Source of the DNA: a virus
Length of the DNA stretch: 64,000 nucleotides
IMG/VR virus record: IMGVR_UViG_3300032288_001980
Span: 32,001 to 96,000 of that record
Reading direction: 5' to 3' (one strand)
Made by a program: the position numbers and the translations under genes. Below are positions 31,024 through 40,183 of the stretch, one piece after another (position 1 is the stretch's first letter; every line of letters starts with the position of its first letter). Under the pieces are notes generated by a model, which worked only from the letters and a program-made list of their open reading frames with translations, was not told where the DNA came from and did no database searches.

Positions 31024-32667
31024 ATGCGACCATACGTACACACAAATCCACTTACAGCTACTGAAGTAGTTAAACTCAGAGAATCCAGCACCGAATGGCT
31101 TAACAGTCAAAGTGCCAGCATGTGTTTAGCTAAATGGTATCATGTCAGCTTACATTTAACAAATGGTAGAACACACAGTTGTTACCATCCGCCTACTCAC
31201 GCTATCAGTATAGATCAAATACAACGTAGACCCAGTGCTTTGCACAATACTGATCAAAAAATAAACGAACGCAAACAAATGCTACGTGGTGAAAAACCCG
31301 AAGGCTGTAAGTACTGCTGGAGTCTAGAAGCACAGGGCAATGTCAGCGACCGTCATTACCGCAGTAGCGAACATTGGGCATTACCCTATCGTGACAGTAT
31401 CAGTAATTTAGAACCTAATCCTACGTATGTAGAAGTTAATTTTAATCAAAGTTGTAATTTTAAATGTGCTTATTGCAGTCCACATCTAAGCACCGCATGG
31501 GAAGAAGAAATCAAAGAGTATGGTCCTTATCCAACTAGTACTCCGCATAACGCTATTTCTGCACTAGAGGCCAATGGACTAATGCCGTTAAAGGTTGCTA
31601 ATCGAGACAATCCTTATGTAGAAGCCTTTTGGAAGTGGTGGCCAGAATTATATGAAACATTATTGGTATTCCGCATGACGGGCGGCGAACCATTAATGGA
31701 TAAAAATACTTTTAGGGTATTAGATTATGTTGCTAACAATCCTAAGGGGGATTTAGAAATTGGTATTACCACTAATATGTGTCCTCCTACCCAGGATCTG
31801 TTAGACAAATTTGTTGCTAGTGTTCAAGCTATTGAAAATTACAGCGCCAGTGCAACTATTGTAGCAGTTAACAATGGCAAGAAAAGTCATACTAAATGGC
31901 CACGTCATGTTTTAAACAAAAATAAAGTTAATATCGACACACTACACAGATTACAAGTTAATGGTTTACCTAATATAGATAGTGTACCTGCTGATGGTAG
32001 CTTTAGTTACGAACTAACACGAACTAAGGCATGTCGTCACATTGGCATTTATGTTAGTGTTGACAGTGTAGGAGCACAAGCAGAGTACATACGAAATGGT
32101 ATGAACTACAATACTCTTATTGCCAATACCAAACGTGTGCTGTATGATACACACATGACTACCATTAACTTTATTAACACCTTTAACATTCTAAGCGTTC
32201 CTGGATTACAAAAATATCTTGAAATGATTTTAGAAATGCGTAAGTATGTTAATAGTCTCAAGGACATTCCTGAAAAGAATCCCGAGTTTAATAACTACTG
32301 GGATAGACAACGTGTATGGTTTGATATTCCTACACTACGCACACCCGTTTGGTTGACTATTCAAAATTTGCCCAGCAATATGTATAGCTTACTTGACCAA
32401 GCAGTTAAGTATATGGAAGCAAATAGCACATCGCATCTTGGCGAACTTATTGGATTTGCCGACTTTGAAATAGACAAATTAAAACGCAATATTGATTGGA
32501 TGAAAAGTTGTCAGTATACTGAAAACGAAAAACAGTTGTTGCGTAGAGATTTTTTTGCTTTTTTTAAAGAATACGATTACCGCAAAGGAACTAACTTTGC
32601 TAAAACATTTCCAGAATTAAGTCTATACTGGAAACAATGTGAGAACAGTTACAATGCAAGAGCCTAA
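31024..32667 (+). CDS. Radical SAM protein 1 (N-terminal twitch-like Cys domain)
   Basis: CLAKW...HSCYHP...CKYCW; CNFKCAYC; TGGEPL. Confidence 0.9.
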   Translation: MRPYVHTNPLTATEVVKLRESSTEWLNSQSASMCLAKWYHVSLHLTNGRTHSCYHPPTHAISIDQIQRRPSALHNTDQKINERKQMLRGEKPEGCKYCWSLEAQGNVSDRHYRSSEHWALPYRDSISNLEPNPTYVEVNFNQSCNFKCAYCSPHLSTAWEEEIKEYGPYPTSTPHNAISALEANGLMPLKVANRDNPYVEAFWKWWPELYETLLVFRMTGGEPLMDKNTFRVLDYVANNPKGDLEIGITTNMCPPTQDLLDKFVASVQAIENYSASATIVAVNNGKKSHTKWPRHVLNKNKVNIDTLHRLQVNGLPNIDSVPADGSFSYELTRTKACRHIGIYVSVDSVGAQAEYIRNGMNYNTLIANTKRVLYDTHMTTINFINTFNILSVPGLQKYLEMILEMRKYVNSLKDIPEKNPEFNNYWDRQRVWFDIPTLRTPVWLTIQNLPSNMYSLLDQAVKYMEANSTSHLGELIGFADFEIDKLKRNIDWMKSCQYTENEKQLLRRDFFAFFKEYDYRKGTNFAKTFPELSLYWKQCENSYNARA

Positions 32668-34060
32668 AAGCTATTACGACAAGCTACTAGAAACAAAAGA
32701 AAAACTCAATGCCGTGGGCAAGGGCTTTTGCTTGATGAAGTGGCAAACAGAAACTTTATACCTGCACATGGGAGATAACCATAGTTGTTATCATCCGCGG
32801 CCGCACAAAATTAGAATTGAAGATATCAAACGTAGTCCCAGCGGCTTACATAATACCGAATACAAAAAGCAACAACGTAAGCTAATGCTAGAGGGCGAGC
32901 GTCCCAGCGAATGTTATTATTGCTGGAACATCGAAGACTTGGGCGGTGATCATATCAGTGACAGGTTTGTACACAGTACCAGCGACTATGCAATCGAAGA
33001 CTACGATACTATACGTAAACTAGATGCTGACGCTGATTGGAACCCTAGGCATATCGAAGTTAGTTTTGGTAATGCTTGCCAACTTAAATGCGGCTATTGC
33101 TGTCCACAGGCTAGTAGTGCTTGGATGGAAGAAATAAAACGCAAAGGCGACTATGACATTACTACCAAACAGTATAGCATTGATTTCTTAAAAGACGGAG
33201 TGTTCTATGAACCTGACATGGACAATCCTTACGTAGATGCTTGGTGGCAGTGGTGGCCAGAGCTAAAGAAAGACCTGCGTGTGTTTCGTATTACTGGTGG
33301 GGAGCCTTTACTTAACAGCAACACATTCAAACTGTTGGACATGTTAGATCAAGATCCTGCTCCTGAGCTACAGTTACATATAAACAGTAACCTAGGTATG
33401 AAGTCTAGCCTAGTAGAAAAACTCAGCGAAAGAGTTAGTAAGTTGTTAGCAGAAAAAAAGATAAAAGATTTTAGACTGTTCACTAGCATAGACGGCTGGG
33501 GCGAGCGTGCAGAGTATATGCGTAACGGTCTAGACTGTGAGTTATGGGAAAAGAACTTACGCATCTTTTTAGATACTGTCCCTAACAGTAAAATTAATTT
33601 GATGATTACATTCAATGTGCTTAGTGTAGTTAAATTTAGATATTTGTTAGATAAGATACTAAAACTTAGAGAAGAATACGGTACACTGGAAAATATGTAC
33701 ACACAGCGTATTGGCTTTGACACTCCTTATCTCAAAGAGCCGCCACACTGGATGATTAATATATTGCCTAAGAACTTTTTAGATTATATGTGGGATCATT
33801 TGCGACACATGAAATATAAAGAGAGAACAAAAGATTTTACTCACGGCTTTGACAAAGTAGAAATAGAAAAGTTCAAACGTGTAGTTGACTACATGGCAGA
33901 AAATCCAGTAAGTCCCAGCATACTGCGCCAGGGCCGCAGAGACTTTTATACGTTCTTTACCGAACACGATAAACGCAGAGGTACTAACTTATTAGCTACC
34001 TTCCCAGAATACACAGAATTTTTTAATATGTGTGAACAAGTATATAGGAATTGGAAATGA
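32654..34060 (+). CDS. Radical SAM protein 2
   Basis: CLMKW...HSCYHP...CYYCW; CQLKCGYC; TGGEPL; probable start at ATG 32654. Confidence 0.9.
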   Translation: MQEPKSYYDKLLETKEKLNAVGKGFCLMKWQTETLYLHMGDNHSCYHPRPHKIRIEDIKRSPSGLHNTEYKKQQRKLMLEGERPSECYYCWNIEDLGGDHISDRFVHSTSDYAIEDYDTIRKLDADADWNPRHIEVSFGNACQLKCGYCCPQASSAWMEEIKRKGDYDITTKQYSIDFLKDGVFYEPDMDNPYVDAWWQWWPELKKDLRVFRITGGEPLLNSNTFKLLDMLDQDPAPELQLHINSNLGMKSSLVEKLSERVSKLLAEKKIKDFRLFTSIDGWGERAEYMRNGLDCELWEKNLRIFLDTVPNSKINLMITFNVLSVVKFRYLLDKILKLREEYGTLENMYTQRIGFDTPYLKEPPHWMINILPKNFLDYMWDHLRHMKYKERTKDFTHGFDKVEIEKFKRVVDYMAENPVSPSILRQGRRDFYTFFTEHDKRRGTNLLATFPEYTEFFNMCEQVYRNWK

Positions 34061-39078: not shown

Positions 39079-40183
39079 AAGTATCTGTACCTTACCATGG
39101 GTGCATCTACACGCATGGCCAGATGGCAAGGCATTTCCCTGCTGTCTTAGTGATCCAACTAAACCGGTAGGTAATTTAAATCAAACTAAGATTATTGATA
39201 TTGTAAATGGCGATGCTTACCGACAAATAAAAAGAAAGATGCTGGCCGGCGAGCCTGTTGACACTTGCTATAAATGTTACGAACAAGAAGCGGTGGGCAT
39301 GACCAGTATGCGTGTTAATAGTTTTAAATATCACCCCACAGACTTTAGTGATTTTAAACTTAAATACCTTGACATTAGATTTAGTAATGTTTGCAATTTA
39401 GCTTGCGTTAGTTGCGGACCTACTTTTAGCAGTAAATGGCATAATGATTGGATTAAATTAGGCCGCAGTAGCGGACATGCACGTATAGTAAGTTTAGATA
39501 TTATGGAACAACTCAAGACAGATTATTTAGATGATGTAGAAAATGTTACTTTTGCAGGCGGAGAACCTTTGGTAACTAACCAACACTATGAGATACTAGA
39601 ATATTTCATAGAAAAGAAAAAACAAGTTAACATTTCATATATTACAAACTTAACTAACTTAGACTATCAAAAAAGAAATGTCTTGGATTTATGGAAAAAG
39701 TTCGATAGAATTAGTATGCTGGTTAGTATAGACAATGTATGGGATAGGTTTGATTATATTCGCTGGGGCGCCAGCTGGAAACAAATACTAGAAAACCTAA
39801 GCAGAGTTAGAACAGAATGTCCTCATATTGATATTAAGATTACCCCAAGTATTAGTATTTTAAATATTTTAGACTTAGATAAGTTAGAAAGAGCTATTCA
39901 TACATTTACAGGCATTCACAGCTATCAGTACAATGTAATCAGCTATCCTGAAAATTTAAAAGCAGAATTGTTGCCACAAGCACATAAGGCTGAAGTTGCT
40001 CGCATGACTGATCATCACAGGGACTGGTTAGCTGAACATAATTTAACTTCGGAAATGCCGGACTTAGTAGACAATTTAATGAAAAATCATTCTAGTGGTA
40101 TAGAATCTACCAGGGCATATTTACAGGATTTAGACCGCATTAGAGGCACCAATAGTCAGCAGTTGTTCCCATATATTTGGTAA
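38993..40183 (+). CDS. Radical SAM protein 7 (start uncertain)
   Basis: CTLPW...FPCC...CYKCY; CNLACVSC; AGGEPL; an ATG start requires a 74-86 nt overlap with the upstream gene. Confidence 0.88.
   Translation: MKNKMNIVNRALGTHSPSGGKSLDPTINKSICTLPWVHLHAWPDGKAFPCCLSDPTKPVGNLNQTKIIDIVNGDAYRQIKRKMLAGEPVDTCYKCYEQEAVGMTSMRVNSFKYHPTDFSDFKLKYLDIRFSNVCNLACVSCGPTFSSKWHNDWIKLGRSSGHARIVSLDIMEQLKTDYLDDVENVTFAGGEPLVTNQHYEILEYFIEKKKQVNISYITNLTNLDYQKRNVLDLWKKFDRISMLVSIDNVWDRFDYIRWGASWKQILENLSRVRTECPHIDIKITPSISILNILDLDKLERAIHTFTGIHSYQYNVISYPENLKAELLPQAHKAEVARMTDHHRDWLAEHNLTSEMPDLVDNLMKNHSSGIESTRAYLQDLDRIRGTNSQQLFPYIW

Follow-up and report, generated by a model that had tools for sequence, protein, structure and literature searches.

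A tandem array of twitch-type radical SAM genes in a giant T4-related phage and its possible part in glycan tailoring

Introduction

What might a phage do with seven radical S-adenosylmethionine (SAM) enzymes encoded one directly after another? The question is raised by a 64,000-nucleotide stretch of viral DNA (hereafter, the window), corresponding to bases 32001–96000 of the 183,898-bp IMG/VR record IMGVR_UViG_3300032288_001980 (designated G000; estimated to be ~52% complete), in which seven consecutive plus-strand open reading frames (ORFs) without intergenic gaps, designated R1–R7, occupy positions 31024–40183. Positions given below are those of the window unless G000 is named. The family B DNA polymerase encoded at 41429–44071 shares 44–50% identity with its counterparts in the jumbo phages Phosso, Atu_ph07, and RaK2, and the record is therefore a fragment of a giant T4-related phage; a near-identity DNA search across the phage collection gave zero matches. 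We found that the array consists of intact radical SAM genes under strong purifying selection and that, in related phages, such arrays recur beside a conserved block of fibre and glycosyltransferase genes. We consider it an even chance that R1–R7 tailor a sugar or glycan built by the phage together with its own glycosyltransferases, each paralog making a distinct edit.

Results

Organization of the seven-gene array

Successive genes of the array overlap by 14, 4, 8, 11, 11, and 86 nt, and each of the seven ORFs contains exactly one CxxxCxxC motif, which bears out the tandem, overlapping set of seven radical SAM genes described in an earlier reading of the letters alone (hereafter, the sequence-only reading). 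A sigma-70-like promoter identified by its match to the consensus (Table 1) ends 21 nt upstream of the R1 start codon; between the genes of the array no promoter-like site of comparable strength was found, and the terminator-like matches inside the array are weak, none of them being convincing. From this layout, R1–R7 look like one operon. The sequence-only reading had assigned both an early and a late promoter to the array. The early one agrees with the early-looking site before R1, but the late one is not confirmed, since the exact T4 late box TATAAATA is absent upstream of R1, where there is only AATAAATA. A hairpin with a 7-bp stem (GCGTAGA...TCTACGC, 30994–31015) overlaps both the -10 hexamer and the R1 5' leader and may be a regulatory element.

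Two of the start codons call for comment. R2 has an alternative GTG start at 32639, and the start of R7 at ATG 38993 is uncertain; from there, the gene would begin within the conserved C-terminal motif of R6, 86 nt ahead of the R6 end. In two relatives (L002 and L004), the stop-to-stop frames show comparable overlaps of ~70–95 nt, and the shorter R7 product of the gene caller (360 aa) would drop the conserved Cys32.

Family membership and subtypes

Six of the seven proteins (R1, R2, and R4–R7) score 290–338 bits against the NCBIfam model NF033640 (N_Twi_rSAM, twitch domain-containing radical SAM protein), well above its curated cut-off of 170 bits, whereas R3 reaches 51.9 bits over the core alone and is not a member. 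The Pfam model Radical_SAM (PF04055) matches all seven with E values from 1e-12 to 3e-4, the matches of R1, R2, and R4 lying under Pfam's own cut-off. In the alignment, the SAM-binding motif is GGEP in six of the proteins and G-D-P in R3. Ahead of the radical SAM core, the six family members carry an N-terminal twitch-type cysteine module (C-x17/18-C ... CxxC), the cysteines of which are invariant in 108 family sequences; this four- or five-Cys module followed by the CxxxCxxC core is shared by the six genes and by R8, an eighth family member described below. In R7, the twitch cysteines are residues 32, 50, 51, 92, and 95, with equivalents in R5 and R6, and Pfam labels this N-terminal domain SPASM (PF13186, E 4.9e-10, residues 32–96).

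The three subtypes proposed in the sequence-only reading are upheld by the alignment and by the tree described below. Subtype A (R1, R2, and R4) has C..KW, HSCYHP, and C..CW motifs in the N-terminal part and D.R(R/K)G(T/S)N....TFPE in the C-terminal part; R1 places its twitch cysteines at 34, 53, 95, and 98, with equivalents in R2 and R4, and its radical SAM cysteines at 144, 148, and 151, and contains an insertion of ~60 aa. Subtype B (R5, R6, and R7) has C..P, CC, and C..C in the N-terminal part, the cysteine pattern of R5 being 7, 25, 26, 72, and 75 followed by 122, 126, and 129. R3, the third type, has no N-terminal domain and differs from NF033640 members also in that its twitch-like cysteines are at the C-terminus: its orthologues conserve G-x4-CC ... 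C-x3-C, a twitch pattern at the usual end of the chain. The C-terminal SPASM/twitch-like domain that had been attributed to R3 is therefore retained as regards its twitch-like cysteines, but Pfam does not call it SPASM.

Identities with several characterised enzymes were tried and rejected. The best scores were 22 bits for NrdG (cut-off 126–131), 31 bits for MoaA (cut-off 284), 25 bits for QueE (cut-off 260), and 34 bits for viperin (cut-off 180), and the best models of named peptide maturases reached no more than 41 bits against cut-offs of 300–855. With the NrdG, QueE, MoaA, and viperin scores this far under their cut-offs, a characterised housekeeping family, considered in the sequence-only reading as another explanation, does not account for the array. 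NF033640 itself is large: at E 1e-30 or better it comprises 6,465 clusters (50% identity), and in its long members in the protein database the radical SAM unit is either doubled or fused to TPR or Sel1 repeats. A literature search found no paper on the family beyond generic twitch reviews.

A conserved fibre/transferase block beside arrays in related viruses

A protein-guided scan of IMG/VR gave 27 viral loci, all ORFs of which were clustered (c numbers denote the ORF clusters). The same array as that in the window is found in 4/27 loci, as far as the contigs reach, at ~80% identity, and a four-gene array in 5/27, while the copy number in the remaining loci varies with the extent of array covered by the contig and reaches seven at most. 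Moreover, c9, c10, c5, c4, c3, two c1, c8, and c2, in this order, precede the array in 22 of the 27 loci; the comparison of array size and order among relatives, suggested in the sequence-only reading, thus revealed a recurrent block beside the array. Most of the longer arrays are followed by c11 and a carbamoyltransferase of the NodU/CmcH type. Genes inserted in some loci encode an NAD-dependent epimerase/dehydratase, a cytidylyltransferase, and a PNP_UDP_1 nucleosidase, an enzyme of the kind that clears 5'-deoxyadenosine. Two near-complete relatives of 320 and 317 kb have 8 and 10 copies, respectively, above the NF033640 cut-off.

The genes of the block point to fibres and to sugar transfer. 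Thus, c9 has a CBM_5_12 domain, c5 is a fibre protein with a virion-structural N-terminus and a Peptidase_G2-like C-terminus, and c4 is fibre-like and rich in Ser, Thr, and Gly. The c1 profile matches glycogenin (GT8) with E 1.9e-5 over the DxD region. A structural model of c2 (predicted local distance difference test score (pLDDT), 88) matched GT-A glycosyltransferases only, the top match being A64R, a capsid-glycan transferase of PBCV-1; the ESM Atlas clusters nearest to c2 are viral, one of them being auto-named GT2-like. Profile searches of the PDB with c2, c11, and c4 gave nothing, the alignment of c2 with c1 by hhalign was not significant, and Pfam and PHROGs gave nothing useful for c3, c4, c8, c11, c32, and most of c1 and c2.

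In the present genome, the arrangement is split. R8, which passes the NF033640 cut-off, is encoded outside the window on the minus strand (G000 115604–117013), within a minus-strand block c9-c10-c5-c4-c3-c1-c1-c2-R8-c2-c2 at G000 112.8–127.8 kb, where it is contiguous with the transferases and fibre genes. The seven-gene array is situated ~40 kb upstream of this block. The phage thus combines a one-enzyme core module (R8) with a detached, enlarged set (R1–R7) that has its own promoter. Neither a carbamoyltransferase nor a flavodoxin was found in the 184 kb of the record (~52% of the genome). The entire record contains 11 Radical_SAM matches; one of these domains is at G000 108462–108977, close to the fibre/transferase block, and a further one (PF04055, 57 bits) lies within a 674-aa ORF at window positions 16488–18512, among putative genes of capsid-addressed cargo.

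Selection and orthology of the paralogs

The ratio of non-synonymous to synonymous substitution rates (dN/dS), computed against two relatives at 80–96% protein identity, is 0.009–0.035 for R1–R3 (R1, 0.03; R2, 0.027; R3, 0.009–0.015); for R4–R7, dS is saturated and dN is merely 0.10–0.14. R1–R7 are intact in every relative that spans them. These results show that all copies are under strong purifying selection, and the degenerate genes that the sequence-only reading had allowed for are not what is found here.

In a maximum-likelihood tree of 96 family proteins, R1, R2/R4, R3, and R7 each fall in a well-supported clade common to other phages. R1 belongs to the orthologous clade formed by the first array gene of other phages, and R4 is the sister of R2, their clade having 100% support. 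R5, R6, and R8 have longer branches and group more loosely with copies from a contig (L046) of a Bacteriovoracaceae metagenome-assembled genome (MAG); R6 groups loosely also with the fourth array gene of other phages, in a wider set that includes the copies of L026 and L046 (95% support). Judging from the tree, the paralogs are old and separately maintained, which fits distinct steps or substrates and argues against recent redundancy. L046 (Bacteriovoracaceae UBA6144) has an eight-copy array of its own at 4028–16024, and most of these copies adjoin different phage array clades in the tree; the contig represents either an ancestral array in predatory bacteria or a mis-binned phage contig.

Core modules in cultured phages and contexts in cellular genomes

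The core module is also present in cultured phages. In Ralstonia phage RsoM2USA (343.8 kb), ORF355–ORF348 encode a fibre-like protein, c3, c1, c1, c29, c2, a subtype A radical SAM protein (ORF349, 38% identical to R2), and c2, in this order. This module adjoins ORF356, ORF359, and ORF361, which are virion proteins as identified by mass spectrometry (PMC8504454). The subtype A gene and c2 overlap by 14 nt in this phage and by 4 nt in L011, and the two proteins may form a complex. When R2 and c2 were used as queries against 50,697 phage records, each matched RsoM2USA only, side by side. In Vibrio phage K566 (VPHK566_0303–0310), the radical SAM genes resembling the family number four or five, two above the cut-off and three at 133–155 bits, and are interleaved with two proteins passing the Pfam GT8 model and with one weak GT4 match.

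A scan of GTDB genomes gave 78 loci, mostly from Bacteroidota, Bdellovibrionota, Alphaproteobacteria, an Elusimicrobia MAG, and a Synechococcus, the neighbours of which were assessed by ORF clustering. The commonest neighbour family is GT2, with 7 of 126 neighbours (43 loci), a modest excess; ABC transporter, FA_desaturase, PhyH, GDSL, and GH5 cellulase account for three each, all three GH5 hits apparently coming from a single locus (L099). Alphaproteobacterial loci have the order radical SAM, c63, GT2, GT2, NTP_transf_5, and DUF6625, and in a Crocinitomicaceae locus (L033) a CysN-like GTPase, a sulfotransferase, PhyH, and a WelO5-like oxygenase stand beside the radical SAM gene. The sugar link is strongest in the phage clades and is not universal for NF033640, and the function of the family as a whole cannot be read from the neighbour tally.

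Several cellular branches deserve mention in their own right. A short Flavobacteriales branch of ~350 aa (L069:7986–9041; also L047, L050, and L059), which lacks the C-terminal motif, is encoded in a conserved heme operon with ALAD, a class-III aminotransferase, URO-D, and the ChaN heme-binding protein, and may be an unrecognised oxygen-independent enzyme of the heme pathway. The Elusimicrobia MAG CAIRTQ01 (L036 and L054; 14 of the scan loci) has dozens of family members, including giant ORFs of 560–1130 aa. In a Chitinophagales MAG (L100:4700–16600), nine paralogs from the cluster of the L033 PhyH dioxygenase flank one N-terminal-twitch radical SAM gene, together with an ORF of a cluster containing ABC transporters.

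Structural comparison

An AlphaFold2 model of R7, built from the 108-sequence alignment (pLDDT 94), matched generic radical SAM cores only (Foldseek, VIA-align), over residues 111–370 and at 12–19% identity, with GDGT-MAS among the fold hits. The family sequence profile gave 8vpo as the best PDB match (E 9e-8), plus weaker hits to the core. No reaction type can be transferred from either the structural or the PDB profile matches. The resemblance to BlsE, BtrN, MoaA, and viperin, which act on sugars or nucleotides, is confined to the same core region and identity range, their auxiliary domain is at the opposite end of the chain from that of the array proteins, and peptide maturases score equally well.

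Immediate neighbours of the array

According to the sequence-only reading, the array lies downstream of a 2-oxoglutarate (2OG)-like oxygenase and a desaturase. The desaturase part holds, with a PF00487 match and three His boxes (Table 1), but the 2OG label is unverified: the gene at 29238–29864 gave zero Pfam or NCBIfam hits, and its visible motif is H-x-D only. A homologue of the desaturase (32% identity) directly precedes three family radical SAM genes, a carbamoyltransferase, and a c2 transferase in another locus (L032), and the desaturase is a possible but unproven partner of the array. A 122-aa ORF directly upstream of R1 (30609–30977) starts with MRAHEF, which fits the capsid-address tag M-R-x-x-E-[LFI] of the upstream genes, which would put the end of the cargo gene set right at the start of the radical SAM operon. 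Iron for the assembly of clusters may come from a ferritin-like gene (PF00210, 90 bits; 28320–28760) located 2.3 kb upstream of the array, a position conserved in at least one relative (L002). As the sequence-only reading had stated, no precursor-like small ORF is found beside the array; among the related loci, the small ORFs flanking the arrays (c3, c8, c31, c51, and c52) are neither rich in Cys, Ser, or Thr nor repeat-like.

Table 1 Coordinates of the array genes and of two features upstream of them.
Feature	Window positions	Strand	Basis
Membrane fatty-acid-desaturase-like gene, upstream of array	29846..30604	+	PF00487 47.2 bits; three His boxes
Sigma-70-like promoter, TTGACA-17 nt-TAGAAT	30974..31002	+	11/12 matches; intergenic gap; consensus match only
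R1, subtype A N-terminal-twitch radical SAM protein, 547 aa	31024..32667	+	NF033640 296.9 bits, split over two stretches
R2, subtype A N-terminal-twitch radical SAM protein, 468 aa	32654..34060	+	NF033640 312.7 bits
R3, divergent radical SAM protein, 432 aa	34057..35355	+	PF04055 32.5 bits
R4, subtype A N-terminal-twitch radical SAM protein, 448 aa	35348..36694	+	NF033640 299.5 bits
R5, subtype B N-terminal-twitch radical SAM protein, 404 aa	36684..37898	+	NF033640 290.4 bits
R6, subtype B N-terminal-twitch radical SAM protein, 396 aa	37888..39078	+	NF033640 315.4 bits
R7, subtype B N-terminal-twitch radical SAM protein, 396 aa with the uncertain start ATG 38993	38993..40183	+	NF033640 338.4 bits

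Discussion

Glycan tailoring as the proposed role of the array

Starting from the observed family, motifs, selection, orthology, and transferase linkage, we infer a substrate class, reaction types, and a final target for the array as follows. R1–R7 would be a co-transcribed set of specialised radical SAM enzymes, each using the [4Fe-4S] cluster bound by its CxxxCxxC motif and SAM to form a 5'-deoxyadenosyl radical, and each predicted to have a second, twitch-type cluster, which would be N-terminal in six of them and C-terminal in R3. The array would then be the 'radical' half, in expanded form, of a glycan module of the phage, with the two GT8-like transferases, the GT-A-fold transferases (c2), and R8 as its counterpart. 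Presumably, the transferases build a sugar chain, and each radical SAM paralog performs one distinct C–H-activating edit on this chain or on its activated sugar precursors; the reactions known for sugar-acting twitch enzymes are oxidation, epimerisation, deoxygenation, decarboxylation, and C–C bond formation. In those phages that have the carbamoyltransferase, carbamoylation would come next. Fibre or other virion proteins are the probable carriers of the product, the host envelope being a less likely destination. Three points favour a virion target: the place of the module in the structural region, the resemblance of c2 to a capsid-glycan transferase, and the expense in SAM. Furthermore, a glycan is favoured over direct cross-linking of a peptide or protein because the recurrent partners are glycosyltransferases, carbamoyltransferase, and nucleotide-sugar enzymes near fibre genes. 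The 'assembly line' for decoration of virion proteins pictured in the sequence-only reading is thus kept in one respect, as an old orthologous clade for each copy fits it, but the context points to a glycan route rather than to direct protein modification.

A more specific form of the proposal, which we regard as rather doubtful, is that the array edits sugars after their attachment to virion proteins, those of the tail fibre or others, for example by epimerisation, deoxygenation, or C–C cross-links on the assembled chain. If so, the virion glycan would be hypermodified and would vary as phages gain or lose radical SAM cassettes, providing a new layer of host-range or defence-evasion variation and a new class of radical SAM reactions.

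Several observations weigh against a glycan substrate. R1–R7 adjoin no glycosyltransferase in this genome, where their flanks are cargo-like genes, the desaturase, and lysozyme and DNA polymerase genes, and for this reason their link to sugar genes is drawn from the relatives. The GT-A assignment of c2 depends on weak Foldseek E values (5e-4 and weaker). The cellular contexts are mixed, including the Flavobacteriales heme operon, PhyH arrays, a sulfotransferase, and desaturases. The best structural neighbours of R7 are mostly peptide maturases (CteB, SkfB, anSME, and SuiB), tied with BlsE and MoaA, and these maturase-like neighbours, together with the TPR and Sel1 fusions, fit a protein substrate equally well. 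No assayed member of NF033640 was found in the literature.

Alternative substrates and targets

The closest alternative is that the array modifies fibre or other virion proteins directly, by thioether or C–C cross-links, epimerised residues, or formylglycine-like oxidations, with the glycosyltransferases acting independently. The fusion of family members to protein-binding TPR or Sel1 repeats, the position of arrays among fibre genes in relatives, and the weak NCBIfam similarity to many peptide maturases are all consistent with this idea. However, that similarity stays at or below 41 bits, far from the maturase cut-offs, and the structural matches comprise the common core only, with BlsE, MoaA, and viperin, enzymes of sugar or nucleotide substrates, ranking equally. 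Moreover, no conserved precursor-like ORF accompanies the arrays, although no search for an RRE domain was made, and the partners to which they are tightly linked, often by overlapping genes, are transferases and sugar-nucleotide enzymes. We therefore judge direct protein modification to be unlikely.

The same glycan chemistry could instead be aimed at the lipopolysaccharide O-chain or the capsule of the host, so as to block superinfection by competing phages. Such envelope remodelling has been proposed for the GT8 genes of the host recognition clusters of pelagimyophages, GT8 enzymes being typical transferases of the lipopolysaccharide core (PMC7029224), and both this interpretation and the nature of the enzymes speak for it, as do the early-looking, sigma-70-type promoter ahead of R1 and the cellular homologues in polysaccharide-type loci with ABC exporters. 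Against these stand the position of the module within the structural/tail region, beside virion proteins confirmed by mass spectrometry in RsoM2USA, and the nearest fold match of c2, a capsid-glycan transferase; no flippase, ligase, or lipid-carrier transferase is seen in the module, and, if SAM is consumed in each turnover, as it is by most enzymes of this kind, editing a bulk envelope polymer would be far costlier than a few virion copies. A host-surface target thus seems quite unlikely. Chemistry apart from glycans, that is, lipid tailoring with the desaturase, hypermodification of DNA near the downstream 7-deazaguanine genes, or work on another small molecule, is to our mind very unlikely. 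It would accord with the desaturase directly upstream here and in L032, with FA_desaturase, PhyH, and GDSL at 3/126 cellular neighbours each, with GDGT-MAS among the fold hits, and with the proximity of the array to the DNA polymerase and a deazaguanine/sugar module in this genome. The desaturase linkage is, however, confined to two lineages, the arrays of most phages are far from replication genes and beside fibres and transferases, the QueE, MoaA, and viperin models score far under their cut-offs, and no DNA-binding or acyl-carrier domain was found in the array.

Relation to known systems

The proposed glycan tailoring by R1–R7 would have its nearest parallel outside phages in the virion glycosylation of PBCV-1, which likewise relies on virus-borne GT-A transferases beside structural genes and includes A64R, the best fold match of c2; the match is a weak one (E 5e-4, TM-score 0.24–0.34). 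To our knowledge, no radical SAM enzymes participate in the PBCV-1 system. Among phages, Zaragoza-Solas et al. (2020) described a pelagimyophage 'host recognition cluster' of tail fibres, many GT8 genes, and radical SAM cassettes, and favoured modification of the host O-chain as its role (PMC7029224). The present genome shares with it the setting of a T4-like aquatic phage with these three kinds of genes, which form one variable island there, but differs in that the array is detached from the fibre/transferase block. Nishimura et al. (2017) reported 12 radical SAM genes in a T4-like environmental genome of 183 kb, in the context of Fe-S metabolism (PMC5332604); the number of genes is similar to the 11 matches found here, whereas the A-type carrier gene of that genome has no counterpart found in this record. 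Both studies mention the radical SAM cassettes in passing and assign no function to them. What is added here is the split arrangement, the C-terminal-twitch variant R3, the measurements of selection and orthology, and two cultured phages suitable for tests.

Implications

Giant aquatic, soil, and gut phages devote 5–10% of a 300-kb genome to NF033640. If glycan editing by R1–R7 and their relatives is true, radical chemistry would be added to virus-encoded glycosylation, and one recurring component of the 'host recognition' islands, which are variable in T4-like phages, would be explained. As the core module is present in cultured phages (RsoM2USA and the Vibrio phages K566 and K567), the proposal is testable at the bench, and the array enzymes may serve as biocatalysts for the tailoring of sugars.

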